Source of the DNA: a virus
IMG/VR virus record: IMGVR_UViG_3300048114_000266
Coordinates: 1-51,354 of that record
Direction: 5' to 3' (one strand)
DNA length: 51,354 nucleotides
This document shows, in pieces, positions 1,618 through 51,354 of this stretch. The notes beneath the pieces were generated by a model, which did no database searches, had not been told where the DNA came from, and worked only from the letters and a program-made list of their open reading frames with translations. How positions within the stretch are numbered: position 1 is the first letter of the stretch; every line of letters starts with the position of its first letter. The position numbers and the translations under genes were made by a program.

Positions 1618-2628
1618 TTAGGCCGGCGCAAGGTACGACGTCGACACTTGGGTATCCGTGACCAAGATTTGCGCCGTGTTCGGCGTAATCGTCACTTCGA
1701 CTTCGTTCGCACCTTCTTCGGGAATGCTATGGGGCGCTTCCGACAGCCCGATACTCCCCGCTTCGTAGCGGAACACTTCGCCCGACGGCTTGGTAAACTG
1801 AATCGACGCCGACCCCGCGTCGTTCGCGTTCAGTAGTTCGGTATATAGCGAATCGTTCGTCACGGTAATCGTCGCTGTAAGTTCGTGTTCGGCGTTCGCA
1901 TACAGCACTTCGAACGGGTCGCGGCCGGACGCTTCCGCGATATAGTGTCGCGGGTCGGCGTTGGTCGTAAGTTCGTGTTCGAAGTTCGTGACGCGGGCGT
2001 AGGAGTTTCCGAAAAGCGAAAGGTTGCTATTGACGTCGTCGAAAATCCACGGGTTCCGGTCGTCAGCGTCGACGCCCGTGGTCGGCGAACTTCCGGGCGT
2101 GACGCCCATAGCAAGCATGTCTAAGTCCGTGGTAAGCCGCCCTTCGTTATCGACCGAAATGGTCACGCCCGGCGGGACGCCGCCCGTGAACGTCCGCACG
2201 AAGTCGTCGGCCCCGCCACGGCCGAAGTATGCCGCTTCGATAGTGACCGACGGCGGCTTCTTGTCGTTCAGTACGTCGATAGTGTGTAGCGTCGTACCCG
2301 TTTCGCTGACTTCCGACCCCGTCGCGTCTAAGTTCGTGTCGGCGGTGACGGTGTCGTTCCCGAAGGCAAGCGCCACGGGGAAGCCGTCGACCGGGATAAC
2401 GGGGAGCGTGCCACCGTCGTAAGTCCGTTGCCCCGGATACTTGTCGGACAATTCGCGGGACGCTTCGCCGCTAATCGACCGTTCTTCAAGCCAATCAATC
2501 GACGGGTCGGGAAGTTCAGTTTCGCCGCTAATCTTTCCGAACGTGCGCGTGACTGACGCCGCCGTACCTTGTTCGGATTCGACCCCGACCAAGATTTGAC
2601 TGTCGTGCCGAACATACGGGTCGGACAT
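1618..2628 (-). CDS. Putative major tail protein
   Basis: ORF track, 336 aa, acidic Thr/Ser-rich; assignment is by position upstream of the G/GT pair only. Confidence 0.5.
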   Translation of the reverse strand: MSDPYVRHDSQILVGVESEQGTAASVTRTFGKISGETELPDPSIDWLEERSISGEASRELSDKYPGQRTYDGGTLPVIPVDGFPVALAFGNDTVTADTNLDATGSEVSETGTTLHTIDVLNDKKPPSVTIEAAYFGRGGADDFVRTFTGGVPPGVTISVDNEGRLTTDLDMLAMGVTPGSSPTTGVDADDRNPWIFDDVNSNLSLFGNSYARVTNFEHELTTNADPRHYIAEASGRDPFEVLYANAEHELTATITVTNDSLYTELLNANDAGSASIQFTKPSGEVFRYEAGSIGLSEAPHSIPEEGANEVEVTITPNTAQILVTDTQVSTSYLAPA

Positions 2629-2743
2629 TCTTATCCCCGAATATCCGCCGTCGCGCCTTAACGTTTAGTTACGGGTCGGGCCGGTGTATATGCGACAAGT
2701 TTATATGCCTACCCGTCCAAGTGGGTAGTAGGTGCGAACCCCT

Positions 2744-3310
2744 ATGACCGAAACCCAATTCGACGACACGACCCGAACCGACCTTACGAACGCCGACGTC
2801 GCGACCGACGACACGGTGCGCGTCGTTTGCATGAACCCGGAAACCGGCGAAGAATTCGACGTCACGGGCGACGTCGCCACGACCTACGCCGACCACAAGT
2901 TCGCCGTCGAAGGCGACGACGGCGTCGTCGTTATCCTGAACGACGACACGAAGGAGGTTCGCGAAGGGTCGTTCGCTGACGGCTTCGACACCGTCGAAGG
3001 CTTCCGCCCGGTCTTCGTGGAATTCGCGACCGAAGGCGACCGCGAAAACGTCGACGCTGACGCCGACGACACGCTTGTCTACGATAACGTAGTTCACGGC
3101 GCGAACGAATCCACGGGCAAGGAATTCACGAAGACGAAGACGGTCGAACACACGGGCGAAGTCTACGCCGAAGACGGCGGCGTGACGGCGTTCCGCTCCC
3201 CGGACTTCGACGGCGTCTTCTTCGTCGACGACGGCGGTACGGTCGAATACGACCCCGCTGACGAAGCGCGCGACCGCTACGAAGTCGGGACGTCCGGCCG
3301 AATCGAATAG
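2744..3310 (+). CDS. Hypothetical acidic protein on the opposite strand, embedded in the structural operon
   Basis: ATG at 2744 (ORF track alternative start 2732) preceded by the conserved promoter-leader cassette in plus orientation; begins MTETQFDD. Confidence 0.55.
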   Translation: MTETQFDDTTRTDLTNADVATDDTVRVVCMNPETGEEFDVTGDVATTYADHKFAVEGDDGVVVILNDDTKEVREGSFADGFDTVEGFRPVFVEFATEGDRENVDADADDTLVYDNVVHGANESTGKEFTKTKTVEHTGEVYAEDGGVTAFRSPDFDGVFFVDDGGTVEYDPADEARDRYEVGTSGRIE

Positions 3311-3339
3311 GCCGTCGGATTCGTATAGCGGCTTTTGGT

Positions 3340-3789
3340 TTACGTTTCGACTGAACGCGACCGCGCTTCGAAGCCGATGGTGACTTCGTAGACGTAGGCC
3401 CCGAAGGTACTATCGTCTAACGGCGTGACGTCGGCGAAGACCATGCGGTCGAAGTCGCCCGGCGTGTCCGGTCGTGACCTGTTGGCTTCGACAATCCGCC
3501 GAAATTCGCTGAATAGTTCGTCGCGACGGTCTTCGTCGGACGCCTTAATTTCCGCGAATATCGTCGCGTCAAGGTCTTGGGACGATTGGAATAGGTCGGC
3601 GTATTCGATACCGAACGGGGAGGTTTCGGACACTTCGACGTAGTCGTATATGCTTAGGTCGCGCCCCTTCCCCAAGTCGTCGGACTTGTCGATTGTCGGT
3701 TCGTCGTTCGACGTGTTCGCCGCGACCCATTCGGCTTGCAGTAGGTCGCGGAATTCCTGAACGATTTTTGTAAGATTTGGTTGCGTCAT
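3340..3789 (-). CDS. Hypothetical head-tail region protein
   Basis: ORF track, ATG at 3789, 149 aa, acidic. Confidence 0.55.
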   Translation of the reverse strand: MTQPNLTKIVQEFRDLLQAEWVAANTSNDEPTIDKSDDLGKGRDLSIYDYVEVSETSPFGIEYADLFQSSQDLDATIFAEIKASDEDRRDELFSEFRRIVEANRSRPDTPGDFDRMVFADVTPLDDSTFGAYVYEVTIGFEARSRSVET

Positions 3790-3792
3790 GGT

Positions 3793-4347
3793 TTACCCAC
3801 GCCCTTCTAATTCGAATACTTCTTGCCCGTTTTGCCGGACGATAACGAAGCCCGATTGCAGTAGCGTACCCCGGTCGGTCGCTTCGTCGGCGACAATATC
3901 TTGGGATTGTTCGAACGCGAATTCGACCGTGTCTTCGATTGCCTTCCGCGCGGCGTCGGGGTCGTTCGACCCTTCGTAGTTTTCAAGAAATTGCTCCCCG
4001 GCTTGTTTGGCCGCTTCGAACCCGCGATTCAAGAAGAAGACGCCGTCGGTCCCCGATTCGGCAATCGCCCCGACGACAATCCACGCGACATTACGCTGGG
4101 CTTCTTCGATAGTGTCGGCGTTTTCCTCCCCGGCCGCCCGAAGCCCAGCGTCAAGGTCGGCCCATTTCCGTTGTACCCACCCTAATAGCGGTTCGAACGG
4201 CGGCGACGTCCCCGTGTAGGACGTGGGGAATTCGACATATACCGCGTAGTCCGCGCCGTAGCCGACCGTCGCGTCGACGTCAAGATTTTCGAATACTTCG
4301 TCGATTTGCGACGAATCGACTTCGACGGTGACATTCGCGCCGACCAT
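3793..4347 (-). CDS. Hypothetical head-tail region protein
   Basis: ORF track 3793..4398 starts on GTG; first ATG is at 4347, 2 nt after the upstream gene's stop. Confidence 0.5.
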   Translation of the reverse strand: MVGANVTVEVDSSQIDEVFENLDVDATVGYGADYAVYVEFPTSYTGTSPPFEPLLGWVQRKWADLDAGLRAAGEENADTIEEAQRNVAWIVVGAIAESGTDGVFFLNRGFEAAKQAGEQFLENYEGSNDPDAARKAIEDTVEFAFEQSQDIVADEATDRGTLLQSGFVIVRQNGQEVFELEGRG

Positions 4348-4349
4348 GC

Positions 4350-5168
4350 TTAGGTGCGCTTGTATTCCCGAATTGTGTCTTTCGCTGAACTTTCCCACGA
4401 CGACGCGGCGTCGGATAGCGACGGCGTGTTCTCCCCACCGCTGGGGACCATTTCACCGAATTGGTCACTCCCGACGATTTGGGCGGCCGCAAGGAGCGCG
4501 GTAGCGTCGCTTATATCGCCCGGCACGTAGTCGCTGACGCCGTCCCCGTCGCTGTCGTATTCAGTCACGTCGTGCGGGTAGCCGTAGCGATAGGACACGC
4601 GCACTTCGGCCATGCCGTCTTCTAACGTCGGGCCGTGGGTTTGCGTCCCGACCGGCGTCAGTAGTTGAATGTCGGGCCGGAGTATCCCCTTCCGATTCGA
4701 TACGACATAATGCCCGTCGGCCCGCCCTTCGTCTTCGGTAATGTCGTTTACCGACCGGGGATTCAGCACTTCGACCATGTCGCCTTCCGTCGACGTAATA
4801 GGTTTGATATGGGTATGGGGAAGGTCGACAAATCCGCGTTGGTCGACTTGGAAATTTTGGCGATTGTTCCGACCGCCGCGAATCCGACGTCGGCGGTGGC
4901 GCGTGTGCTTTTGCTTGTGCGACAGTTTGATTTTTAATTCGGCGTCGACGACCTTCCGGGTCCGCCAAGCGCGCTTCGTTTCGCTGTCGACCTTTTCGGA
5001 CTTGTTCGCGATTATCTTGTCGACTTGGTCTTGCGTCAGCGCCCCCTTCGACGCGTCGCTTACCGTTTCCGGTAGGTCTTGGTACTTCTTGTTACGAATG
5101 TGGGCGAAGACGTCTTCGGGAGCGCAATACACGACGTCTTCGTCGACTAATCGGGTGTCGACGGGCAT
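4350..5168 (-). CDS. Hypothetical head-tail region protein
   Basis: ORF track, ATG at 5168, 272 aa. Confidence 0.5.
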   Translation of the reverse strand: MPVDTRLVDEDVVYCAPEDVFAHIRNKKYQDLPETVSDASKGALTQDQVDKIIANKSEKVDSETKRAWRTRKVVDAELKIKLSHKQKHTRHRRRRIRGGRNNRQNFQVDQRGFVDLPHTHIKPITSTEGDMVEVLNPRSVNDITEDEGRADGHYVVSNRKGILRPDIQLLTPVGTQTHGPTLEDGMAEVRVSYRYGYPHDVTEYDSDGDGVSDYVPGDISDATALLAAAQIVGSDQFGEMVPSGGENTPSLSDAASSWESSAKDTIREYKRT

Positions 5169-5530: not shown

Positions 5531-6736
5531 TTACGCTAAGTTGTAGCGGCCGACGATACGACTGTCGGGGGCGCTTGCCGCAAGCGTCCCGTAGGCGTCG
5601 ACAGCGACGTCTTCTTGCGGCGTGGTGCGCGCAAGCGGGTGAAGCGTCGTGTCTTGAAGCATGGCCATGACGATAGTCGACATGTCCATGCCGACCAACA
5701 GACGCGACCCTTCGACGTCCGGGCACCCGTGCGATTCAAGCACCGGAACCCCGTCGATATTCAGCGCGCGGAACCCGAAGTTCAGTTCGTCGCCGGGCGA
5801 CGTGTAGCGCACGAAGTCGTCGACGGATTCTTTCAGGTCTTCGAAGGTCTTGTGGTCGGTGACGAAGACCAAGTCGTCGTAGTCGGCACCTTCGCGGCGA
5901 AGTTTCCGAATGTCCGTGCGGACGTCGCTTTCCGTGACGGTCGACCCCGACGCGTCGGTAAGCATGTTCGCTTCGTCGGCAAGGTCGAACAGTCCGTCGA
6001 AACTTGCGGCGTCGTTCCCGCTGACTCCCGCGACCGACCCGGTGCCCTGAATGATTTGGGCTTCTTCGTAGTGGCGAACGGAACGCACTAACGCTTCTTC
6101 CGTCAGCGAACGGGACGAACGAAGCGTCGACGTCGCCAATTGCAGGAAGTCGGTGACGGCCGTCTGACGGCCGTAGGGCACGACGCTGTATTCGTGCGTC
6201 GCGTAACTGTCGTCATTTTCGGGCCACGTTTCGTCGTTGCCCGAATTGCTACCGGGTTCGTGGAACCGGCCGACGTCGCCGTGTTCGGTAAGTTCGTCGG
6301 TCTTGTAGGTCGATTCTTGAATCGCGACGCGCGCCACCATGTCCGCAAGCGGCGTTTGCTTGCGGTCGGTGATTCGGACGTCGGGCGAAATGAAAATCGG
6401 GAGGCTAAACTGCGACGTGTCGGCCGCCTTCGACACGACTTCTTCGGCCGCCTTCCGAACCGACGCCCCGTCGCGAACCATGCGATTGAATTCGGTAAAG
6501 GCGTCGTCCCACCCGCCGTCGTACATTTTCGACACAAGGTCGACCACTTGGCCGCCCGTGTGGAAACCCATGTAGTCCTTGTAAAGGACTTCGTCGCCGG
6601 GAAGACCCGTTTCCTTCGAAACGGTATCCATCAGGTTCCCGAACGCGGCTTCGTGGGCTTCGACTTGTTCTTTCTTGCTAATCGTCCCGTTCCGTGCCGT
6701 CGAAGACTTGACGGTAGTATCGTAGTCGTTACGCAT
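5531..6736 (-). CDS. Major capsid protein (HK97-like by position and size)
   Basis: ORF track, 401 aa, ATG at 6736, immediately downstream of the scaffold/protease-like gene and portal. No fold search run. Confidence 0.6.
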   Translation of the reverse strand: MRNDYDTTVKSSTARNGTISKKEQVEAHEAAFGNLMDTVSKETGLPGDEVLYKDYMGFHTGGQVVDLVSKMYDGGWDDAFTEFNRMVRDGASVRKAAEEVVSKAADTSQFSLPIFISPDVRITDRKQTPLADMVARVAIQESTYKTDELTEHGDVGRFHEPGSNSGNDETWPENDDSYATHEYSVVPYGRQTAVTDFLQLATSTLRSSRSLTEEALVRSVRHYEEAQIIQGTGSVAGVSGNDAASFDGLFDLADEANMLTDASGSTVTESDVRTDIRKLRREGADYDDLVFVTDHKTFEDLKESVDDFVRYTSPGDELNFGFRALNIDGVPVLESHGCPDVEGSRLLVGMDMSTIVMAMLQDTTLHPLARTTPQEDVAVDAYGTLAASAPDSRIVGRYNLA

Positions 6737-15642: not shown

Positions 15643-16020
15643 CTACCGGCCCCCGTAATTCGGGAAGCGTTTTTCCATTAGTTCGGCAAAGCGTTCGCGG
15701 GCATAGGCCCCCCAATCCCGACCGTCGTGTTCGACGACGTCGGTGTCGGAACCGATTAGGTCGAAGTCGTGGTCGTGCGAATCCGACTTTCGCCAACCAC
15801 CTTCGACGTCGCGGTCGTTCCGTGCGTCGCGGTAAGGGTATTGGTAATACCATTCTTCGCGGTAAACCCGAAGCGACCGCGTGTCGGCGTCGCGAACGAA
15901 CTTTTCGACCACGACGTCACTTTCAGTCTTCGCCAGCATTACGACGACGCCGTCGCGGGGTCGGTATTCGTATAGGCGGGCGCAGGTATTTTCTCCCGGC
16001 GTTGCGGTTTCTTGTGGCAT
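15643..16020 (-). CDS. Hypothetical protein
   Basis: ORF track, 125 aa, ATG at 16020 directly preceded by the promoter-leader cassette. Confidence 0.55.
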   Translation of the reverse strand: MPQETATPGENTCARLYEYRPRDGVVVMLAKTESDVVVEKFVRDADTRSLRVYREEWYYQYPYRDARNDRDVEGGWRKSDSHDHDFDLIGSDTDVVEHDGRDWGAYARERFAELMEKRFPNYGGR

Positions 16021-16075
16021 GGGTTCGCACCTACTACCCCCTAACTGCCATACGTACTTAAGCCTGTCGGCGTTA
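16021..16075 (-). promoter_or_regulatory. Promoter-leader cassette
   Basis: Gene-strand gccgacagg-CTTAAGTA-cgtatggcagttagggggtagtaggtgcgaaccc-ATG. Confidence 0.6.
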
Positions 16076-16293
16076 CACTACACTTCCCGAACCCACATGA
16101 CGCGACATTCGTAACCTTCCGACACTTTGGACATAATCCAATCTACTTGTGAATTGCTAAGGGCGTCGCGGCCTTTCGGTTTAATGCCGACAGGTTTATT
16201 ACCGTGGGGTGCGTATCTACACCCGGACACCGACGCGGTGGCCCGGCGACCCGTCCGACCGGCGTGGTCGTCGACGACAGCAAACCCGTGACC

Positions 16294-16725
16294 ATGACGA
16301 CCAACTACGACGACCTACGACACCGTATCGGCGTATTGCGCGGCGGCCAACTATCGGTAAAAGTCCCGGCCGACGTCATTCCCGAAGTTAACGACGCCCA
16401 TTCGTTCCGTACCATATCGGAACGGGAAGGCGAAGACGGCGTCGTGACCGTGACGCTTGAAGAAGGGTTTACGCGCTTGGAGGTTCACGGCGTGACCGCC
16501 GTCTTCGACGGCTATCGCTACTTCCCGCGTGACCCCGACACCGTCGACTACGACCTTCGGGGCGACGTCGGCGACGCGAAGGTCGGCTTCGAAAGTGACG
16601 ACGGCCACGCCCCACTAACCGAAGACGTCCAAACCATGCACCCGGTTCGGAACATGACCGTTCATAGCCTTGTGAACGGCTTCGAACGCGGGAACGTCGA
16701 ACCGCTCCCGAAGCGGAACGACTGA
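16294..16725 (+). CDS. Hypothetical protein
   Basis: First ATG (16294) of ORF track 16204..16725; upstream gccgacagg-TTTATTA at 16185-16200 resembles the shared BRE/TATA. Confidence 0.5.
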   Translation: MTTNYDDLRHRIGVLRGGQLSVKVPADVIPEVNDAHSFRTISEREGEDGVVTVTLEEGFTRLEVHGVTAVFDGYRYFPRDPDTVDYDLRGDVGDAKVGFESDDGHAPLTEDVQTMHPVRNMTVHSLVNGFERGNVEPLPKRND

Positions 16726-16768: not shown

Positions 16769-18244
16769 CTATGCCTTGTCGACGTGCGACGACGTCGACG
16801 ACCCCGAAGACGACGACCGGCGGCTTTCCGTATAGATAGCGTACCGAAGCGCGTCGGCCGCGTGGTCGTCGACGTCGCTACCGCCGACGTCTTCTTCGGT
16901 GTAGCCAAGCAATTCCTTCCGCGTTTCTTCGCACCGTTCAGCGACCAACAGCCCCGGCCGACCGTCGGCGTCTTCCCGAAGTCGATACCGGACTTCGTCA
17001 ATCCCGGCGTCGACTGACTTGTCGGCCTTGCCCGCTTTCCACCCGCGCGACCGCATTTTCTGAATGTCGCCGGGTTCGTGTTCGGAATGGATTCGGCCGC
17101 TTGGCTTGTCTGAAAGCCAATATTCGTCGTGTCGCGGCCCGCCGATTATGTCTTCGACGTGCGTCCCCGAACGGTAAAATTCGTCTACGACGATATATTG
17201 CCCGGCGTGGGTCTTCGCTATTTCAAGCATGACGCGGGGGTCGTCCCACCCGGCGTCGTAGCCATACATGCGCCACGACCCGCCGATTGCCGTATCGTAT
17301 TCGGGGATTGTCCCGTCGGATTCGACGTCGACGACGTGACTATGCCGGCGGAAGTCCGAATACACACGGCCTTCGTCGGCTTCGAATGACCCGTGTAGTG
17401 CTTGGTTTTCCCTCCCCGTTCCGCCGTGAATCCGCCGGATTCGCGCCCGGTCGTCTTCCGTTAGGAATGGGTTATTATCGGTCGACGCGGTGATTAACTT
17501 CGTCCGAATGTTCAGCGTATTTCCGTCGGCGGGGTCGACACCTTGTTCTAAAATGTCCCATGCGTCGTTAAACCCGTTCCCGGTCGTCGTGATTAGGATA
17601 CAGCGCGGGCCGGCGGGCTTGTAGTCTAAGCGTTCGCCTATCGTCTTCCGAACGCCGTTCAGGTCGTCGTAATATGCGGCTTCGTCAAGCCACGCGAATG
17701 AGAATTTGCCACCGTCGTAGCGGTTCGGCTTGTCGGCCGACGCCAAGATAATGACCGACCCGTTTATCAGCGTGATTACGCCGTCTTGTTTGCTGAACGA
17801 CCGGACGATTGGGGAGTTTTCCGGGTCGCCGTCGCCCAAGAATGGGTCTAAATTCTCCCCCGGAAGTTCTTCGAAAAGGACGGGGTACGTCGTCTTTTTC
17901 GATTCGGCGTAGGTCTTCCCCATAGCCAAGACGCGCGCCGGGGCGAAGTCGTTCGCCAAAGCGACTTCGATACAGGTTCGCGCCCCGGTGACTGACTTCC
18001 CCGAACGGTAGCCGGCGACTATGCCGATAATGTCGAAGTCCCCGGAATAGACGGCCGTCCGCGCTTCCCGCTGGGGTTTCCAAAACGCCCACGTAATATC
18101 TATGTCAGTCCCGTCGACGTCGACGACCGCGCCTTCGCGCCGTAGAAGTTCGACGTCTTCGTCGGATAGGTCGGCCGCGCCCGGCGCGAATATCGGCGTG
18201 CCGTCGGGCGCTGTTAGCCGCGTCGGTTCGGAAGTCGTCGACAT
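16769..18244 (-). CDS. terL: Terminase large subunit
   Basis: ORF track, 491 aa; Walker A GYRSGKS, Walker B-like WLDEAAYY, C-terminal acidic nuclease-like region ending DHAADALRYA. Confidence 0.8.
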   Translation of the reverse strand: MSTTSEPTRLTAPDGTPIFAPGAADLSDEDVELLRREGAVVDVDGTDIDITWAFWKPQREARTAVYSGDFDIIGIVAGYRSGKSVTGARTCIEVALANDFAPARVLAMGKTYAESKKTTYPVLFEELPGENLDPFLGDGDPENSPIVRSFSKQDGVITLINGSVIILASADKPNRYDGGKFSFAWLDEAAYYDDLNGVRKTIGERLDYKPAGPRCILITTTGNGFNDAWDILEQGVDPADGNTLNIRTKLITASTDNNPFLTEDDRARIRRIHGGTGRENQALHGSFEADEGRVYSDFRRHSHVVDVESDGTIPEYDTAIGGSWRMYGYDAGWDDPRVMLEIAKTHAGQYIVVDEFYRSGTHVEDIIGGPRHDEYWLSDKPSGRIHSEHEPGDIQKMRSRGWKAGKADKSVDAGIDEVRYRLREDADGRPGLLVAERCEETRKELLGYTEEDVGGSDVDDHAADALRYAIYTESRRSSSSGSSTSSHVDKA

Positions 18245-18803: not shown

Positions 18804-19607
18804 TTAGTCGTCGATACGGCCGTCGTGGGTCACGTCGACGTCGCGGTCGTCGACCCCGACCGCCTTCGACACGACGCTTTCGATACTGTCGTGAACGCTG
18901 TCGGCGTCGTCGTCGGCGACGCCGTAGACGTCGACCGTGTAGGCGTGGCCGGCCGGGAAGTCGATACGGGCACACTTCCCGACTTCTTCTTCGCGCGACC
19001 CCTTCGTGACGACACCGCGTTCGAACACGGCGCGGACTTCGACCGTGCGGTCGCGGCGGGCGTGGTATCCCTGAACGCGGTCGCCTTCCCAATCGACGCT
19101 GACGTCGTCTATGCGCATGGTTTTGAGGTTCCCCGACCGCTTCGAACGGTAGTGAACCGTGACCGAAACGCCGTCTTGAACCGCTCCCGTGACCGGCGCG
19201 GATTCGGGGAAGTCGACGCGGTAAACGGCGTCGACGTCGCCCACGCAACGGTACGAATCGCCGCGCGACCATAGGCGGCCGTCGTCGGTGTAGGCGTAGG
19301 CGTCACCGTCGTCGTGGAACGTGTAGGCGCTGACGCTGTCGAAGTCGACGTCGGACGGGAAGCGGTCGGCGTCGAACGAAGACGCCCGCGTGGGCTGAAT
19401 CGCACGCACGACCTTCGTGTTCCCGTGCGACGTCGTATATTCGAATTCGATAGCCGTCTTTCCCGCGTCGTCGCGCCGGGAACCGTCGACGAACGACAGC
19501 CCCGTAAACCGGGAATACTGCAAGTCGTCGGCGTCGACTTCGGTTCGGCGTTCGCGGTATTCGGCGGCAATCTTGTCGTCGGTCGGCTTGGTTGCGTTTT
19601 CAGGCAT
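18804..19607 (-). CDS. Hypothetical protein
   Basis: ORF track 18804..19628; ATG at 19607 sits directly on the promoter-leader cassette; begins MPENATKPTDD. Confidence 0.55.
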   Translation of the reverse strand: MPENATKPTDDKIAAEYRERRTEVDADDLQYSRFTGLSFVDGSRRDDAGKTAIEFEYTTSHGNTKVVRAIQPTRASSFDADRFPSDVDFDSVSAYTFHDDGDAYAYTDDGRLWSRGDSYRCVGDVDAVYRVDFPESAPVTGAVQDGVSVTVHYRSKRSGNLKTMRIDDVSVDWEGDRVQGYHARRDRTVEVRAVFERGVVTKGSREEEVGKCARIDFPAGHAYTVDVYGVADDDADSVHDSIESVVSKAVGVDDRDVDVTHDGRIDD

Positions 19608-19664
19608 GGGTTCGCACCTACTACCCACTAACGGGGCTACGGTAATAAGTGTGTCGCTGTTGGC
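19608..19664 (-). promoter_or_regulatory. Promoter-leader cassette
   Basis: Gene-strand cagcgacacaCTTATTAccgtagccccgttagtgggtagtaggtgcgaaccc-ATG. Confidence 0.6.
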
Positions 19665-22415: not shown

Positions 22416-22706
22416 CTAAGCGTCGGCGTAGGGAGCCTTTAGACGTTCGTCCGTCGCTTCGATTCGGACTTGGCGGTCGCCCCGTGTGGCGTACACGGGG
22501 AATTCGTGGGTCGACAGTTCATTAAAGACGTGGTCGGTGTCTTCAGCGTTCCAACTATCGCCAAGTTCGATTACGACGTCGCCCGCAATCCCGATAATGT
22601 CGTAATCGGGCTTTCCGTGAACGTTCGCGTCGAACCACGCTTCGACTTGCCGTTTCCAATAGTCGACATTTTCGACGGTCGTGTGTTCGAATGTGTTTTC
22701 GGTCAT
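22416..22706 (-). CDS. Hypothetical protein
   Basis: ATG at 22706 within ORF track 22416..22718; begins MTENTFEHTT; preceded by the cassette. Confidence 0.55.
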   Translation of the reverse strand: MTENTFEHTTVENVDYWKRQVEAWFDANVHGKPDYDIIGIAGDVVIELGDSWNAEDTDHVFNELSTHEFPVYATRGDRQVRIEATDERLKAPYADA

Positions 22707-22765
22707 AAGGGTTCGCACCTACTACCCACTAACGGCCATACGTACTTAAACCTGTCGCCGGTACA
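22707..22765 (-). promoter_or_regulatory. Promoter-leader cassette
   Basis: Gene-strand ggcgacagg-TTTAAGTA-cgtatggccgttagtgggtagtaggtgcgaaccctt-ATG. Confidence 0.6.
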
Positions 22766-25233: not shown

Positions 25234-25296
25234 GGTGGTTCGCACCTACTACCCACTAACGGCCATACGTACTTAAACCTGTCGCCGGTACACTAC
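25234..25296 (-). promoter_or_regulatory. Promoter-leader cassette
   Basis: Plus-strand sequence 25234-25296 is near-identical to 22707-22768. Confidence 0.6.
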
Positions 25297-27684: not shown

Positions 27685-27743
27685 GGTGGGTCGCACCTAC
27701 TACCCACTAACGGGGCCACGGTAATAAAGGTGTCGGCGTTACA
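27685..27743 (-). promoter_or_regulatory. Promoter-leader cassette
   Basis: Gene-strand acgccgacacc-TTTATTA-ccgtggccccgttagtgggtagtaggtgcgacccacc-ATG. Confidence 0.6.
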
Positions 27744-33821: not shown

Positions 33822-33879
33822 AGGGGTTCGACCTACTACCCACTTGCACCCGGTGGTACATAAAGGTGTCGCCGTTGGT
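33822..33879 (-). promoter_or_regulatory. Promoter-leader cassette (variant)
   Basis: Gene-strand cggcgacacc-TTTATGTA-ccaccgggtgcaagtgggtagtaggtcgaacccct-ATG. Confidence 0.55.
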
Positions 33880-35438: not shown

Positions 35439-35521
35439 TGCGACGGGCCGGATTCGAACCGGCGAACCCCTACGGGACACGGTCTTAAGCCGTGCGCGTT
35501 TGGCCACTTTGCTACCGTCGC
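35439..35521 (-). tRNA. tRNA-Leu, anticodon UAA
   Basis: Hand fold of GCGACGGTAGCAAAGTGGCCAAACGCGCACGGCTTAAGACCGTGTCCCGTAGGGGTTCGCCGGTTCGAATCCGGCCCGTCGCA: 7-bp acceptor stem, anticodon stem CACGG/CCGTG with loop CTTAAGA, long variable arm, T-arm GCCGG-TTCGAAT-CCGGC. The D-stem is weak. Confidence 0.7.
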
Positions 35522-35599: not shown

Positions 35600-35716
35600 T
35601 AGTCGCGGGTGGATTCGAACCACCGTCGTAGGCTTACTTTCGGGCACGCCCCCTTCGACCTTCGTTCAGCGTGCCCGTCCAAAGGCCCACATGATTGGCC
35701 ACTACACCACGCGACT
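35600..35716 (-). tRNA. tRNA-Gln, anticodon UUG, with a 44-nt intron
   Basis: Exon 1 AGTCGCGTGGTGTAGTGGCCAATCATGTGGGCCTTTGG and exon 2 AGCCTACGACGGTGGTTCGAATCCACCCGCGACTA give a perfect acceptor stem, anticodon stem TGGGC/GCCTA and T-arm GGTGG-TTCGAAT-CCACC. The insert sits at the canonical 37/38 position. Confidence 0.7.
35635..35678 (-). other. tRNA intron
   Basis: Contains a 9-bp inverted repeat CGGGCACGC ... GCGTGCCCG, compatible with a splicing helix. Confidence 0.6.
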
Positions 35717-39358: not shown

Positions 39359-39420
39359 AGTGGTTCGCACCTACTACCCACTAACAGGGCTACGGTAATA
39401 AAGGTGTCGGCGTTGCACCA
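39359..39420 (-). promoter_or_regulatory. Promoter-leader cassette
   Basis: Gene-strand cgccgacacc-TTTATTA-ccgtagccctgttagtgggtagtaggtgcgaaccact-ATG. Confidence 0.6.
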
Positions 39421-39441
39421 CGGGTTAGGTATTGCCTGATT

Positions 39442-39458
39442 GGTATATTAGCGACATA
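39442..39458 (+). promoter_or_regulatory. BRE/TATA-like promoter of the TFB-like gene
   Basis: cgacatac-TTTTATG about 35 nt upstream of ATG 39489. Confidence 0.45.
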
Positions 39459-39488
39459 CTTTTATGCCGGTCGGCGGTACGTGTCGGT

Positions 39489-40538
39489 ATGGAAACGGAA
39501 CCAGATACCGACGCGACCGACCGGATTCGTTCGATTGCCGAACGGGTCGGGTTCGACGACAGTATCGGCGACTTGGCTACCCAAGTGTTCACGAACGCCG
39601 TCGAAGAAGGCGTCGTCACCGCCGTCGTCGACCGCGACGAAAGCGGTCGCTTCGAAGGTGAAACGCGGAACTACCCGGCGGCCGCATACCCGGCGGCCGT
39701 GTATGCCGCCGCGCGGATTCGTGACATTCCGACCAAGCCGTCCGAAGTCGCTGACGCGGCCGACGTCGACGCTGACGTCGACGCTGTCGGTGACTATTAC
39801 AAGGACATGCTTGGGGCGCTACCCTACACCGTCGAACCGGAAGACCCGGTCGATTGGGTGCGCCGGCTTTGCGACGACTTGGACGTGTCCCCCGGCTTCG
39901 AAACCGACGCCGTCGACTTGTGCGGCGACGCTGTCGGTGCGAACCTGCATAACGGCAAGGCCGTGTCCGGGTTCGCCGCCGCCGTCGTCTACGCGACGTC
40001 GGAATATCGCGACGCTGACGTCGGGCAAGACCGTATCGCCGAAGTCGCCGACGTGTCGCCCGTGACGATTCGGAACCAGTACCGCGACGTCTTGGAATTG
40101 TGGGAACGGGCGGCCGAACCGGGCGACCCCGACGTGATTCGGGCCGCCGTTAACGACGTGTGTGACCGTATCGACGGGCTTCCCTCCCGCGTGCGGGCCG
40201 ACGTCGCCGACCTTGCCGCCGACGCTATCGACGCCGACGCCGACTTCGTCAGTAACACCGACCCCGACGGCGTGGCGGCCGGTATCGTCTACGTGGCGGC
40301 GAAAGACGCCCGCGTCGACGTCAGTCAAACCGAAGTCGCTGACGTCGCGGGCGTGTCGAAGTCGACCGTCGTGAACCGGGTAAACGACGTCCGCGATTGG
40401 CGGCGTCGGAAGGACTTCGAAGCGAAGGAATACAATACGCTAAAGCAAATCGCGGCCGACCACGGCGTCGACGTCGGGCAACAGCCCGAACGCCCCTATC
40501 TTATCGACCGCTTAGTCGAAGCGGGTGTCGACGCATGA
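39489..40538 (+). CDS. TFB/TFIIB-core-like transcription factor with no N-terminal zinc ribbon
   Basis: First ATG of ORF track 39432..40538. SGFAAAVVYATSEYRDADVGQDRIAEVADVSPVTIRNQYRDVLEL closely follows the pattern I recall for the second cyclin repeat and HTH of archaeal TFB; two further similar modules are present. The N-terminus has no Cys pairs. Confidence 0.6.
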   Translation: METEPDTDATDRIRSIAERVGFDDSIGDLATQVFTNAVEEGVVTAVVDRDESGRFEGETRNYPAAAYPAAVYAAARIRDIPTKPSEVADAADVDADVDAVGDYYKDMLGALPYTVEPEDPVDWVRRLCDDLDVSPGFETDAVDLCGDAVGANLHNGKAVSGFAAAVVYATSEYRDADVGQDRIAEVADVSPVTIRNQYRDVLELWERAAEPGDPDVIRAAVNDVCDRIDGLPSRVRADVADLAADAIDADADFVSNTDPDGVAAGIVYVAAKDARVDVSQTEVADVAGVSKSTVVNRVNDVRDWRRRKDFEAKEYNTLKQIAADHGVDVGQQPERPYLIDRLVEAGVDA

Positions 40539-40945
40539 ACGGCAAGAAGCGCGTCGAAGTCGAATTTATCGACCCCGACGAAGGCGGGTTTAGCATGACG
40601 TCGGGGGCGTCGCCGTCGGCGGCCGAATATGACACGGTGTCCGTCGAATTCGAATTGCACGAACTTGAACGGGTCCGCGACCGTGTCTTCGACGTAATAG
40701 CCGCCGCCCATTCGGATAACAAGCGTGTCGCTGGGGTCGTCGTCGGCGTTCGCGAATACCTTCGGCTATACGCGCTTATCAGTCACGAAATGGGCGACAC
40801 GTCAGCCCCAGCGACGAAGGCGCACGTCGAAGACCTAATCGGGCGTCCCGTGACGGTCGTCGGCGGGTCGACCGTCAGCGTCGAATACGAAGACGACGAC
40901 GGGCGTCTTGCCGAACACGTCTTCGAAATGGGTGGTCGCGAATGA
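40535..40945 (+). CDS. Hypothetical protein
   Basis: Internal ATG at 40535 of ORF track 40397..40945; ATGA overlap with the TFB-like gene stop. Confidence 0.5.
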   Translation: MNGKKRVEVEFIDPDEGGFSMTSGASPSAAEYDTVSVEFELHELERVRDRVFDVIAAAHSDNKRVAGVVVGVREYLRLYALISHEMGDTSAPATKAHVEDLIGRPVTVVGGSTVSVEYEDDDGRLAEHVFEMGGRE

Positions 40946-41217
40946 CCGACATGCCGCCCATGCCGACGGCTACCGAAGCGGTGACTATCGAAGTCGACGA
41001 CCCGACCGACCCCGAAGCGTATGCGCGTGCCGCGTACCGGGCGCAAGCGTCGGCCATGATTACCGAAATGATGTATGGCCATTCCGCGATAACTGTCGAC
41101 GACGACGGTATTCACGTCGCTGTCGGCGTCGAAAGCCTTCCGGGGACCGACACCGACACCTACGGGAAAGCACCGATTGAAGCCATTCGGGAGCAAAGGG
41201 GTGAATCGAATGACTGA
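40942..41217 (+). CDS. Small hypothetical protein
   Basis: ORF track, 91 aa; ATGA overlap. Confidence 0.45.
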   Translation: MTDMPPMPTATEAVTIEVDDPTDPEAYARAAYRAQASAMITEMMYGHSAITVDDDGIHVAVGVESLPGTDTDTYGKAPIEAIREQRGESND

Positions 41218-41878
41218 CGAAGACGATATTCCGACGGTCGACGTCGACGACCTTCCCGAAGGCGCGTTAGACAATATCGACGTCGCGACAGTCGGGGACA
41301 CCGACCGCTTCCCGCCCGACATGTCCGTCGAAGACTTCAGCGACCCGAATGAATCGCTTGTTCGGTCGTTCGACGACGATATTGCCAAGGCGGTTCAGTC
41401 CGCCGTGTGGCATACGATTGTCGACGGCGCGGGGCACGAAGCCTTCGTCGACGACCTAACGGCCGAATCCATGCGCGACGCTATCGAACGGCTTCAGTCG
41501 AACGGCTTCGCGACCGAACGACTGTCGGCGACCGACGTTTGGGGAGAAAGTGACGGCCGGCCGTCGGGCGCGGCGTTTTTCATGGGTGACGACGTCGCTG
41601 ACGACTTCGAAGACGTCGTCGACGAATGGGTGCGAATCGACGACGGTGACGACGCCGACGACTTTGACCGTGTGAAGTTCGACGGCTACCTTGCCGAACG
41701 GGTCGAAGACGGACTTCCGTCGCACCTTGTCGTCTTGGTCGACGTCGACGCAATCGCCCGCGTGCCGCCCCACGCCCGTCACGTTCCGGTCGGATTGGAT
41801 ACGACCCCCAGCGTATCCTCCCCGATTGTCGTCGCCCAAGAAGACGGTATCGCCGTGATTAACGTCGCCCAACAGTAG
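41210..41878 (+). CDS. Hypothetical acidic protein
   Basis: Internal ATG at 41210 of ORF track 41177..41878; begins MTDEDDIP. Confidence 0.5.
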   Translation: MTDEDDIPTVDVDDLPEGALDNIDVATVGDTDRFPPDMSVEDFSDPNESLVRSFDDDIAKAVQSAVWHTIVDGAGHEAFVDDLTAESMRDAIERLQSNGFATERLSATDVWGESDGRPSGAAFFMGDDVADDFEDVVDEWVRIDDGDDADDFDRVKFDGYLAERVEDGLPSHLVVLVDVDAIARVPPHARHVPVGLDTTPSVSSPIVVAQEDGIAVINVAQQ

Positions 41879-41892
41879 CGTAAGCGAACCCT

Positions 41893-42309
41893 ATGACAGC
41901 ACTACAAGACTTTGCGGAATGGTTCAAGGCGCGGGAAACGAAAATCGAAGCGTGGTATAGCGACGGCGTCGGCCGCTTCGCGTTCCGCGTGACCGTCGAC
42001 GGCCAAGCGTTCGTATGTGCGGCCCGGTCGTCGCCACCGAAGGACGGGAAGACGTCGATAATGGCCCGTGTCGCGGGGAAGGCGCAAACGTCAGACGCGC
42101 TTATCGCCCTTCGATTGCCGGGCGGGATTCGTGTCTTCGACCCGGTGACGGTCTTGGATACCGGGGAGCGTGACACGCCCGCCCAATCCGACCGTCGCGA
42201 ACGCGACGAATCATGGGTCGCGGTCGACCTATCCGTCGCTTGCACGTTCAGCGAATGGTACGACGGTGACGCGAAGCCGCTTCGGTTCGCCGACGTCACC
42301 GAAGCCTAA
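41893..42309 (+). CDS. Hypothetical protein
   Basis: ORF track, 138 aa; a short gcgaaccct leader precedes the ATG. Confidence 0.5.
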   Translation: MTALQDFAEWFKARETKIEAWYSDGVGRFAFRVTVDGQAFVCAARSSPPKDGKTSIMARVAGKAQTSDALIALRLPGGIRVFDPVTVLDTGERDTPAQSDRRERDESWVAVDLSVACTFSEWYDGDAKPLRFADVTEA

Positions 42310-42338
42310 GATTCGCGAACGCCGGGAAAGATTCAGTC

Positions 42339-42351
42339 CTTTTTGTTTTTT
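42339..42351 (+). terminator. Oligo-T tract, candidate archaeal transcription terminator
   Basis: ccTTTTTgTTTTTTc about 30 nt downstream of the stop of 41893..42309. Confidence 0.45.
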
Positions 42352-42431
42352 CACGCTGACGACGTAGGAGTATGACGGGGTCGTAGCCACCGGCTAACGA
42401 CCCCGTTAGTGTAGGTCTAAGCGTTTGTGTT

Positions 42432-42485
42432 GTTACTACTACACTACACTACACTACTACTAACTAACACTATACTACTACACGA
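42432..42485. repeat. AT-rich low-complexity ACTAC pentanucleotide tract
   Basis: ttactactacactacactacactactactaactaacactatactactacac, immediately upstream of the promoter of the 42535 gene. Confidence 0.7.
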
Positions 42486-42493
42486 CCACTTAA

Positions 42494-42506
42494 CCGACAC
42501 TTATTT
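42494..42506 (+). promoter_or_regulatory. BRE/TATA-like promoter of the regulator gene
   Basis: ccgacac-TTATTT about 30 nt upstream of ATG 42535. Confidence 0.5.
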
Positions 42507-42534
42507 GCAGTTAGTGGTCTTTTGGTGGTCTTGC

Positions 42535-43191
42535 ATGTCGAAAGACGGTTTGGTGCGACTTCCCCGAATCAGCGAATCGCTCCGTGACGAATTCCGCGAC
42601 GACGTCGAAGACCGCTTCGGAACGGTACGCGGTCACTACCGTTCGGAAGTCGAAAAAGCCCTTCGTGAATACCTGAACGGGTCGCACGGCGGGGATACTG
42701 ACGACCGCCTTCGCCGGTTAGAAAACGCGGTCGAACGTATCGACGAACGAACCGCCGCCCTACACGCTGACGAATCGGGAAAAAACAAAAAGGATTCAGA
42801 CGTTTCCCCCACGACCCAAAATCGGATTGAATCAATCCGTGACCGTGTCGAACGCGAATCGGGAACCGGCCCCGTTCACGAAGCGGTCGTGCGGCAAGCA
42901 ATCGAAGACGTCGCCGGCCATAGTGACCCGACCATTCGGCGGTACATGCAAATGCTTACCGATAGGGAAATACTGTATCCCCACCCGAACCGCGACACGA
43001 AGTTCGTTTACGGGGAAGAAGAATATGCGTGCATGATTCAAAGCATGGCCGAATCGGGAGCAATCACCGAAAGCGAATATTGGGACGTCGTCACCGGCAT
43101 GGGCGGCGAAAACGACTTCCGCAATATCTTGGAACGCGCCGGCTACGACGACGGCGGTGACGACAAGCCCGCCGGTCGAACCTTTCAGTAG
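42535..43191 (+). CDS. Putative DNA-binding regulator (N-terminal RHH-like, C-terminal winged-helix-like)
   Basis: Internal ATG at 42535 of ORF track 42427..43191. N-terminus LVRLPRISESLRDEFRDDVEDRFG fits a strand-helix-helix pattern; C-terminus HEAVVRQAIEDVAGHSDPTIRRYMQMLTDREILYP fits a winged helix. Confidence 0.5.
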   Translation: MSKDGLVRLPRISESLRDEFRDDVEDRFGTVRGHYRSEVEKALREYLNGSHGGDTDDRLRRLENAVERIDERTAALHADESGKNKKDSDVSPTTQNRIESIRDRVERESGTGPVHEAVVRQAIEDVAGHSDPTIRRYMQMLTDREILYPHPNRDTKFVYGEEEYACMIQSMAESGAITESEYWDVVTGMGGENDFRNILERAGYDDGGDDKPAGRTFQ

Positions 43192-43228
43192 CGACACGCA
43201 CTTGCCGACCGTTCCCGTTAGTTAGGCC

Positions 43229-43729
43229 ATGTCTTCCGCGAAGGGCGATAGGTGGGAACGGCATTACGTGAACGCGCTTAGTGCCGACGACCCCGACGAC
43301 GATAGCGACGACGTCGAACGGGTCGGTATCGACGACTTCGCGTTAGTCGAACCGTTCACGGCGTTACGCCTTCCCGCTTCCGGCGCGGGGCGTTCCGCCG
43401 ACCTTCCCGACATTCATGCGTGGCTTTGCCCCGACGCCCATACAGTCCGACAGTACGCCGCCGAATCGAAGGCGGGGGCCGACCGGGTGTATTTGGATAA
43501 CGACGAAGTAGACGCGCTTGTGCGCTACGCTGACGACACGGGGGCGACGCCGGTCGTGTTCGTTCATATCGACCACGAACACGCACATGACGACTTAGGC
43601 GGCGATTACGTCGTCGCTATTGACGAACTACATTCGACAGCGTCGGGCTACACGTTCACGAAGACCCGCGACGCCCCGACAGCCCGGACGTTCGCCGAAT
43701 GGGTCGACGACCCCCAATCGGTCGCTTAG
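43229..43729 (+). CDS. hjc: Holliday junction resolvase (Hjc-like)
   Basis: ORF track, 166 aa. GDRWERHYVNAL ... LRLPASGAGRS ... PDIHAW ... AAESKAG ... VYLDNDEVDALVRYADDTGATPVVFVHI follows the pattern I recall for archaeal Hjc (G.xFER ... SGS ... PD ... E.K ... Y ... P..AV). Confidence 0.55.
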   Translation: MSSAKGDRWERHYVNALSADDPDDDSDDVERVGIDDFALVEPFTALRLPASGAGRSADLPDIHAWLCPDAHTVRQYAAESKAGADRVYLDNDEVDALVRYADDTGATPVVFVHIDHEHAHDDLGGDYVVAIDELHSTASGYTFTKTRDAPTARTFAEWVDDPQSVA

Positions 43730-50418: not shown

Positions 50419-51354
50419 CTAACGAACCCCCGCGCGGTCGTTAGTCTTGTCACCGACACGTTCCGCAATCTTGTCGGCAAGTTCTTCTAACGTCCGGCGG
50501 TCGACGTTCGTCGGGTCGAATTCGCCCGACAAGTCGATTGTAATGCCGTCGATTGCGACCGACGTCCCGCCGCCACCGCCGCCCGACGCGGCCGCACTAA
50601 CAAGCGGTTCGGGAATGACGGCTTCGCCCTTGTGAATTTGGGCGACGCCGTCGGATTCTACCATGCCGCCCGAAGCCATTCCCCGGACTTGTTCGCCCGC
50701 CCATTCACCAAGCCCGTGAATCGGGTTATTCGTCATTACGTTTTCTATCGTATTCGCCGCTCCGGGGTTATTTTCAGCGAATCGTGAACCCGCCCTTCGT
50801 GCCGGACCCCACCCGTCGCCACCGCCGGCTATTTCGGCAAGGATTTGGCCCGCCGTCAGCGTCGGCCATACGATTGCGCCGACTATCATACCGCCCGTGA
50901 TAGTCCCGAACCCGATTGCGGCGGCTATCAGCCCGCCCGTGACCGCGCCGAACGGTATCGACTTCAATAGTTGGCCGCCCGATATGACCTTGAACGACAT
51001 GGCCCCGACGACTAACGCCGCGCCGATTACGGGCCACCCCAGCGCGCCGACGATTATGCCGGCCCCAATCGTCGCCCACGACAGCGCGCCGACGACGTCG
51101 CCCGCTTTCAGTTTCCCCCATGCGATTGCACCGACGATTAGGCCGGCCCCGATTATCGGCCACCCGACGGCGGCGATTATCAGCCCGGCGGTAATCGTCC
51201 CCCATTTCAGCGCGCCCAAGACGTCGCCCGCTTTCAGTTTCCCCCATGCGATTGCACCGACGATTAGGCCGGCCCCGATTATCGGCCACCCGACGGCGGC
51301 GATTATCAGCCCGGCGGTAATCGTCCCCCATTTCAGCGCGCCCAAGACGTCGCC
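50419..51354 (-). CDS. Tape-measure-like tail protein, C-terminal segment (same gene as 1..583)
   Basis: ORF track 50419..51345; the TTG start there is an artefact of the window edge. Contains two identical 42-aa repeats plus one diverged copy, then a Gly-rich C-terminus. Confidence 0.55.
   Translation of the reverse strand, partial: GDVLGALKWGTITAGLIIAAVGWPIIGAGLIVGAIAWGKLKAGDVLGALKWGTITAGLIIAAVGWPIIGAGLIVGAIAWGKLKAGDVVGALSWATIGAGIIVGALGWPVIGAALVVGAMSFKVISGGQLLKSIPFGAVTGGLIAAAIGFGTITGGMIVGAIVWPTLTAGQILAEIAGGGDGWGPARRAGSRFAENNPGAANTIENVMTNNPIHGLGEWAGEQVRGMASGGMVESDGVAQIHKGEAVIPEPLVSAAASGGGGGGTSVAIDGITIDLSGEFDPTNVDRRTLEELADKIAERVGDKTNDRAGVR
51103..51354. repeat. Two perfect tandem copies of a 126-bp in-frame repeat inside the tape-measure-like gene; a further copy forms the window start (1-127)
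   Basis: The string gacgtcgcc-cgctttcag recurs at 51094, 51220 and 51346, giving a 126-bp period; encodes the 42-aa unit LGALKWGTITAGLIIAAVGWPIIGAGLIVGAIAWGKLKAGDV. Confidence 0.8.

Follow-up and report, generated by a model that had tools for sequence, protein, structure and literature searches.

A probable moron-like accessory gene behind its own promoter-like cassette at the neck-tail junction of an HHTV-2-like haloarchaeal virus

Background

Accessory genes within structural operons are well documented for bacteriophages and little described for archaeal tailed viruses. In lambdoid and HK97-type phages, Hendrix, Juhala and colleagues are said to have described such genes as morons, i.e. 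autonomous promoter-gene-terminator units that lie between genes of the late operon. Our literature search found no described accessory gene inside the structural operon of an archaeal tailed virus. Here we ask what to make of a gene for a 188-aa protein that lies on the plus strand among minus-strand structural genes in the virus record IMGVR_UViG_3300048114_000266, the whole 51,354-nt stretch of which was analysed (hereafter the window). An earlier note had viewed this gene as a moron-type insertion expressed from a full copy of a repeated promoter-leader cassette. Related loci are labelled with L-numbers (L002 etc.) and proteins of its family with P-numbers (P0005 etc.).

The virus and the setting of the gene

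The window has a GC content of about 61% (0.610), and its predicted proteins are acidic. Among 50,697 phage records the sole DNA match was HHTV-2 (Haloarcula hispanica tailed virus 2, Saparoviridae), with 65% identity in the head-tail genes. The HHTV-2 prohead protease, capsid, gp42, gp43, gp44 and tail tube are matched in this order on the minus strand, while the far end of the window matches HHTV-2 gp50 and gp51 (tail proteins) and the end of the tape measure. The tape-measure region contains a 126-nt (42-codon) tandem repeat that occupies 51067-51354 and continues at 1-241, with 96% matches within the array and 80% between 1-241 and 51102-51342. Since this repeat runs off the end of the sequence into its start, the contig is cut inside the tape-measure gene, and the window represents the circularly permuted and probably complete genome of an HHTV-2-like haloarchaeal siphovirus. 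The genes that frame the present question are:

1618..2628, minus strand: tail tube (major tail) protein gene (Pfam Phage_tube_2 PF18906, E 4.9e-23; 41% identity to HHTV-2 tail tube gp46)
2744..3310, plus strand: coding sequence of the 188-aa acidic protein (ATG 2744, TAG 3308-3310), called on coding score, homologues and AlphaFold2 fold
3340..3789, minus strand: neck gene, HHTV-2 gp44-like (phrog_19972), last of the head/neck unit and convergent with the 188-aa gene
3793..4398 and 4350..5168, minus strand: neck/connector-like genes (Neck1-like, adaptor-like)
5531..6736, minus strand: major capsid protein gene
16769..18244, minus strand: large terminase gene

Elsewhere, the non-structural region carries a tRNA-Leu(UAA) at 35439-35521 on the minus strand, on which ARAGORN and Rfam agree, and a second tRNA match of 117 nt at 35600-35716 on the same strand, which was found by Rfam only and may contain an intron. 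The tail module of the related locus L002 codes for a PQQ-like beta-propeller protein (Pfam PQQ_2; 1819-2799, minus strand), presumably a tail fibre or receptor-binding component.

Coding status of the opposite-strand frame

The coding score, the homologues and the Pfam and HHTV-2 matches of the flanking genes bear out the earlier observation of a real gene on the opposite strand, between the tail tube and the neck/capsid genes. When the 25 plus-strand ORFs with the listed total coding scores are compared per codon, it comes first (0.99); this score and the GC3 (0.82) exceed those of the other ranked plus-strand ORFs and of the training genes (first six of 14 compared). An in-frame GTG at 2732 would give an alternative version of 192 aa. 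We also considered the converse situation, namely that the plus-strand frame is a shadow of a minus-strand gene at 2669..3151 (160 aa) that occupies the position of HHTV-2 gp45 and leaves the operon uninterrupted. This frame is indeed open, and HHTV-2 has a same-strand gene in this slot, but the minus-strand ORF shows a per-codon score of just 0.40 and a GC3 of 0.64, HHTV-2 gp45 has no match here, and all database homologues match the plus-strand product, which an independent gene caller annotated on 9 contigs. The coding statistics and these homologues led us to reject the minus-strand gene, and we regard this explanation as most improbable.

The ratio dN/dS of the 188-aa gene ranges from 0.38 to 0.67 and is 0.55 against L002, whereas seven neighbouring structural genes in the same comparison give 0.16-0.43, all below this value. 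Constraint on the protein is real and is looser than on its structural neighbours. The composition of the gene is native: its GC is 0.626 against 0.610 in the window, and it heads the ranked plus-strand ORFs in native codon usage. Its dS against L002 (0.35) is lower than in the flanks (0.63-1.0), which may reflect just strong codon bias; recent transfer of the gene, which the lower dS had brought up, was dropped given that identity along the region barely exceeds that of the flanks. The nucleotide identity of the gene to L002 is only slightly above flank level, which implies that the flipped arrangement is old in this lineage.

The protein and its family

The predicted 188-aa protein is soluble and very acidic, with a pI of 4.05 and no hydrophobic or membrane segment. 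An AlphaFold2 model based on a 15-sequence alignment (pLDDT 87.8) predicts two all-beta domains, at about residues 24-95 and 109-187, with a disordered acidic linker between them. Four non-self homologues were recovered from a database of 5.8 billion clusters. When 1.84 billion representatives were searched with a profile, 14 proteins including the query were returned, and the family has 13 credible members. The family profile (P0001-P0015) matches full-length members across both domains, with E from 5e-87 (self) to 1e-37. Two long repeat proteins, P0016 and P0017, match only a beta-hairpin repeat at motif level and were excluded. Each beta domain is also known as a stand-alone protein in the family, and a zinc ribbon lies between the domains in P0008 and in place of the N-terminal domain in P0005.

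All contigs on which the family was found belong to tailed viruses with proteins of the halophile type (acidic); searches of the IMG/VR and GTDB genomes recovered no member. The 188-aa protein had no match in Pfam, PHROGs, NCBIfam or PADLOC, nothing below E 0.6 in a PDB sequence profile search and nothing meaningful in a tblastn search of 50,697 phage records, and a Foldseek search of PDB with a first, low-confidence model gave no match with E <0.02. In BFVD the best matches were weak, with E from 3e-5 to 4e-3, and comprised uncharacterised proteins of HCTV-2, HHIV-2 (including VP18) and HHTV-2. Being tiny, uncharacterised and recovered from such contigs only, the family is a candidate host-interaction factor. 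Our best guess, offered tentatively, is that it might be a non-virion protein that binds a host or viral macromolecule via an SH3/Sm-like small barrel.

The slot between the neck and tube genes across related loci

We compared the interval between the neck and tube genes (the slot) in 20 distinct informative loci, which were collected from the contexts of family members and from tube-anchored searches of IMG/VR and JGI metagenomes. The following states were observed:

Slot empty (about 50-90 nt): L011, L012, L017, L020, L021, L022, L024
Same-strand gene resembling HHTV-2 gp45: HHTV-2, L016
Unrelated same-strand genes (zinc-ribbon or other): L010, L015, L018, L023
188-aa family, same strand as the tube gene: L014, L008/L009, L030, L027 (four virus lineages)
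188-aa family, flipped and led by the cassette: window, L032 (identical protein), L002-L007 (72% identity)

Four of these states occur among the loci nearest to the window, as judged by a tube identity of 62-75% or, for loci that include the capsid gene, a capsid identity of 78-84%. In L011 and L012, which are close relatives, only about 50-60 nt separate the neck gene from the tube gene; L023 (tube 75% identical), L010 and L015 have unrelated genes in place of the 188-aa family. Outside the slot, one family member converges on the end of a portal gene (L029), and another lies upstream of a gene block whose last gene is a portal gene (L031). HMM searches found no paralogue of the 188-aa protein in the window or among the other slot genes. 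This is the pattern of a hypervariable slot in which, judging from gene content, the 188-aa gene would be a dispensable accessory.

Zinc-ribbon (CxxC...CxxC) proteins recur in the slot (L010 1-190, L015 121-320, L018 2738-3925, L023 3718-3921), and a similar zinc ribbon is the one fused into the family members P0005 and P0008. Such recurrence might reflect a common pool of small zinc-binding accessory modules for this slot.

The repeated placement of the family might also be read as a sign of a tail-related role, for instance in assembly or as a decoration, itself dispensable, of the tube or neck; the protein would then belong functionally to the structural module, and its orientation would be incidental. 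In favour of this, and against neutral cargo, at least five virus lineages have the family immediately upstream of their tube gene (the window, L002-L007, L014, L008/L009, L030 and L027); further, the best BFVD fold matches to haloarchaeal virus proteins include HHIV-2 VP18, which carries a VP designation. Against it, the gene is absent from L011 and L012, where the neck directly adjoins the tube, unrelated genes substitute for it in L023 (tube 75% identical), L010 and L015, and two members are located elsewhere, in L029 beside the portal gene and in L031 at a non-structural site. Moreover, the gene has a promoter-like cassette of its own, evolves under a dN/dS above that of all structural neighbours and matches no tail family of PHROGs or Pfam. 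A tail-related role is hence unlikely in our estimate, and we retain the 188-aa gene as an accessory.

These comparisons also bear on the proposal of a moron-type insertion. The gene is absent, replaced, on the same strand or flipped, rather than fixed in position and orientation in all relatives; a ubiquitous presence coupled with a structural role, which the earlier note had held to speak against its proposal, was not found. The accessory nature, patchy distribution and cassette-led arrangement of the gene, together with the empty slot of L011 and L012, agree with that proposal. The part concerning insertion fares less well, in that the composition of the gene is native and not foreign as in a classical moron, and the family recurs in the slot in four same-strand lineages. 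From its distribution it looks like a recurrent resident of the slot whose orientation was flipped in this lineage, and not like a one-off insertion.

A repeated promoter/leader cassette

The region upstream of the 188-aa gene contains one of eight copies of a cassette in the window:

2676..2743, plus strand: full promoter/leader cassette before the 188-aa gene, from the 8-way alignment
16020..16072 (about 16042), minus strand: copy heading a unit that runs into the portal, protease and capsid genes
19607..19659 (about 19629), minus strand: copy heading a unit with the large terminase
22677..22760, minus strand: copy with 54 nt in common with 2720-2773
25235..25287, minus strand: copy before a gene starting MTETTEA
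27686..27738, minus strand: copy
33822..33874, minus strand: copy with a 1-nt deletion in the core, before a gene starting MTEPTET
39360..39412, minus strand: copy before a gene starting MTETTEA

The copy at 2676..2743 is of full length and comprises an upstream conserved block, a BRE/TATA-like element GCGACAAG-TTTATATG (2692-2707), the core AGTGGGTAGTAGGTGCGAACC (2720-2740), CCT and the ATG. The 21-nt core recurs, with at most one mismatch, at six minus-strand sites, against an expectation of 0 from shuffled sequences; the eighth copy, in which the core has lost one nucleotide, was found with an 11-nt core (33831-33841, minus strand). The earlier claim that a full copy precedes the gene is thus upheld, with 8 copies against 0 expected. 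In the 8-way alignment the copies share a BRE/TATA-like GCGACA-NN-TTTAnnnn, a spacer, the core, 2-4 nt and the ATG, and similarity reaches the first codons. All eight copies directly precede an ATG, and the start peptide MTET, which the earlier note had likened to that of the early genes, follows three of them (2744, 25233 and 39358); MTE follows five of the eight, and the other starts are MNAH, MPQET and MPEN. What did not hold is the use of the cassette as a marker of early genes, since copies also head the large-terminase unit and the portal/protease/capsid unit. It is better described as a putative general promoter and start module of the minus-strand units. The tail unit carries no copy. 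RNAalifold detected no conserved secondary structure in the cassette (consensus -3.3 kcal/mol, 0 compensatory pairs), and searches of the cassette against the phage collection and of a 16-nt core against IMG/VR returned single matches at chance level only.

A ninth, partial copy, consisting of the promoter half only (CCGACAGGTTTATTACCGTGG), lies at 16187-16207 on the plus strand and points away from the 16042 cassette, with which it is placed back to back. Behind it follows a plus-strand ORF at 16204..16725 (173 aa) with a moderate coding score of 0.51 per codon, in a gap that has no good minus-strand ORF. This ORF had no match in NCBIfam, the sole library scanned, and is probably a second opposite-strand gene. 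Separately, plus-strand ORFs of 368, 233, 138, 254 and 166 aa at 39432-43729 diverge from the 39382 cassette and form the only sizeable plus-strand gene block of the genome.

Transcription signals around the slot

A region of 115 nt, which contains both the cassette and a TTAAGG box, lies between the divergent 188-aa and tube genes; the 188-aa gene converges at its other end on the gp44-like neck gene across a gap of 29 nt. Two further candidate signals were noted:

2656..2661, minus strand: TTAAGG box, divergent from the cassette and 27 nt before the tube ATG (2628); a candidate promoter element (TATA-like) for the tail unit
3333..3347, plus strand: short T-runs (TTTT, TTT, TTT), a weak candidate for an archaeal oligo-T terminator, just past the stop of the 188-aa gene and overlapping the stop of the neck gene

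Of 17 regions upstream of the tube gene, 12 show a (C/T)TAAG box at 22-27 nt from the ATG, regardless of what the slot contains, with no distance available for L016, L020 and L022, which were read from a position that is not a start codon; the exceptions L030 and L018 have CTATTA and TCAAGA, respectively, at this position. Haloarchaeal TATA boxes are centred some 27 nt before the transcription start, and the majority of mRNAs in these organisms lack a leader. At such a distance the box is well placed to be the tube gene's own promoter. If so, the slot would be a natural break between two units and could admit cargo in either orientation; it is probably the boundary between the head/neck unit and the tail unit, with a tolerance for genes on both strands. 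As regards transcript ends, L002 has only T3 runs after the homologue, while the same-strand homologues are followed by T4-T6 runs and then by the tube promoter box. A scan for terminators of the bacterial type found nothing.

On the minus strand no T-run follows the stop of the neck gene, and relatives with an empty slot likewise lack a terminator there, so that late read-through from the head unit would run antisense to the 188-aa gene. This raises the question of whether transcription itself matters as much as the protein, with convergent or antisense firing gating the read-through from neck to tube, or late read-through silencing the unit. The plausibility of such antisense read-through, also in view of the empty-slot relatives, and the retention of the flipped layout in two lineages whose flanking genes have diverged to a dS of about 0.6-1.0 are compatible with this idea. 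It is countered by the conservation of the protein and its confidently predicted fold, and by the four lineages with a same-strand gene, in which gating of this kind is impossible. We deem it quite improbable.

The cassette in related viruses and signs of exchange

In L002-L007 the same cassette stands before the homologue with 72% identity, and no second copy occurs there in 20 kb of structural genes; homologous cassettes precede the slot genes of L023, L014, L030 and L027. A TATA-like box was found before every family member with upstream sequence to inspect, at 21-22 nt from the ATG in L014, L008, L030 and L027, 28 nt in L031 and 36 nt in the window and L002. A TATA-like octamer 21-22 nt before the ATG corresponds to leaderless geometry, and the unrelated slot gene of L023 also shows a distance of 22 nt. 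The element TAGTATGGTGCGA includes the ATG (MVR...) in L014 and in this unrelated L023 gene (alignment A5), while L030 and L027 keep the start as ATGG(T/C)GCGAC with a diverged upstream half; in all copies of the window and L002 its counterpart is TAGTA-GGTGCGA, with the ATG 10-12 nt further downstream. By its sequence the cassette is a predicted promoter-plus-start module that is conserved in the clade and uniform in form within a genome.

At the level of the core, the relatives have TATGGTGCGA with an internal ATG that serves as the start (MVR...; L023 3318-3394, L014 425-470, L030 4960-5015, L027 620-665). A 1-nt difference abolishes this internal ATG in the window and L002, and all eight copies of the window are without it.

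Several observations relate to exchange of the genes behind the cassette. In related genomes homologous cassettes are followed by different cargo: L023 has a near-identical cassette in the same slot before unrelated genes of 117 and 67 aa, and the L015 contig begins at the start-codon sequence seen behind the 16042 cassette of the window. Within the window, 2720-2773 (plus strand) and 22677-22730 (minus strand) are 89% identical over 54 nt, which cover the core, the start codon and ten codons (30 nt). The 188-aa protein begins MTETQFDDTT and the 96-aa protein encoded at 22416..22706 begins MTENTFEHTT; the match ends after these 10 codons, the two proteins are otherwise unrelated, and their upstream promoter halves differ. 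This suggests gene conversion or recombination with a junction that would lie inside the ORFs. The ends of four Logan contigs (L008, L009, L028 and L029) fall 12-45 nt upstream of a family member, a pattern that a repeat at this place would produce. One could go further and picture a portable promoter-plus-start-codon module that captures, converts and flips cargo at the neck/tail junction, such that the first codons of unrelated proteins (MTE..., MVR...) are encoded by the cassette and the convergent transcription of the flipped copy separates head-unit and tail-unit expression in time. Taken as a whole, we consider this scenario doubtful.

Proposed organization and significance

Taking these lines of evidence together, we consider it likely that the 188-aa gene is a moron-like accessory gene that forms an expression unit by itself, within a hypervariable slot where the head/neck and tail units of a haloarchaeal siphovirus meet. 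Under this proposal: 1) the host TBP, TFB and RNA polymerase would start transcription about 23-24 nt downstream of the TATA box, near 2730, leaving a leader of about 13 nt before the ATG at 2744; 2) transcription might end at the T-runs of 3333-3347, which overlap the neck gene's stop; 3) the gene would probably be co-regulated with the seven other cassette-led units and not by read-through of the structural operon; 4) the cassette, including the first codons, is probably a recombination module that would move or convert such cargo. In this lineage and in one sister lineage the cargo is found flipped and behind the standard cassette of the genome.

The unit as such would be an ordinary moron-like accessory gene, with no pointer to a surprising mechanism. 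The locus offers a clean comparative example, in which one slot is seen in five states across 20 distinct related loci together with a repeated promoter/start cassette conserved across viruses. The most useful by-products of the analysis are this series of states of the hypervariable slot and the conserved cassette, which could be used for mapping archaeal virus promoters and testing cassette-mediated gene shuffling.

Comparison with known systems

One close reference is HHTV-2, whose genes 39-46 present the same order of capsid, connector genes, gp44, slot and tail tube, with protein identities of 26-51% over the aligned parts. It differs in that its slot holds an unrelated, same-strand gene, the 103-aa gp45, and in that no cassette copy is detectable.

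Like the morons of lambdoid and HK97-type phages, the unit is a single accessory gene between structural genes that are adjacent in relatives, and it has its own promoter-like element, a candidate terminator, a patchy distribution and a place outside the conserved set of virion genes. Unlike morons, its putative promoter is of the archaeal type (TATA/BRE) and is a copy of the virus's own cassette rather than an import, its base composition and codon usage are native, and its orientation is opposite to that of the operon.

A second parallel, and the closest precedent in print for the cassette, is the halovirus HGTV-1, which has conserved TATA-containing motifs before many ORFs. These motifs were proposed to take part in transcription regulation and gene shuffling and were compared to promoter stem-loops in phages of the T4 type (PMC3950731, which cites Sencilo et al. 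2013 and Arbiol et al. 2010). The window virus differs from HGTV-1 in being an HHTV-2-like siphovirus and not a myovirus, and its cassette differs from both sets of motifs in that no conserved inverted repeat or stem-loop accompanies it, in that it spans the leader, the start-codon region and the first codons, and in its mere 8 copies. What they have in common is a repeated promoter motif before many genes of a haloarchaeal tailed virus with variable cargo behind it; as in HGTV-1, the cassette is a plausible substrate for recombination and gene shuffling, one copy sharing its 10 first codons with an unrelated gene.
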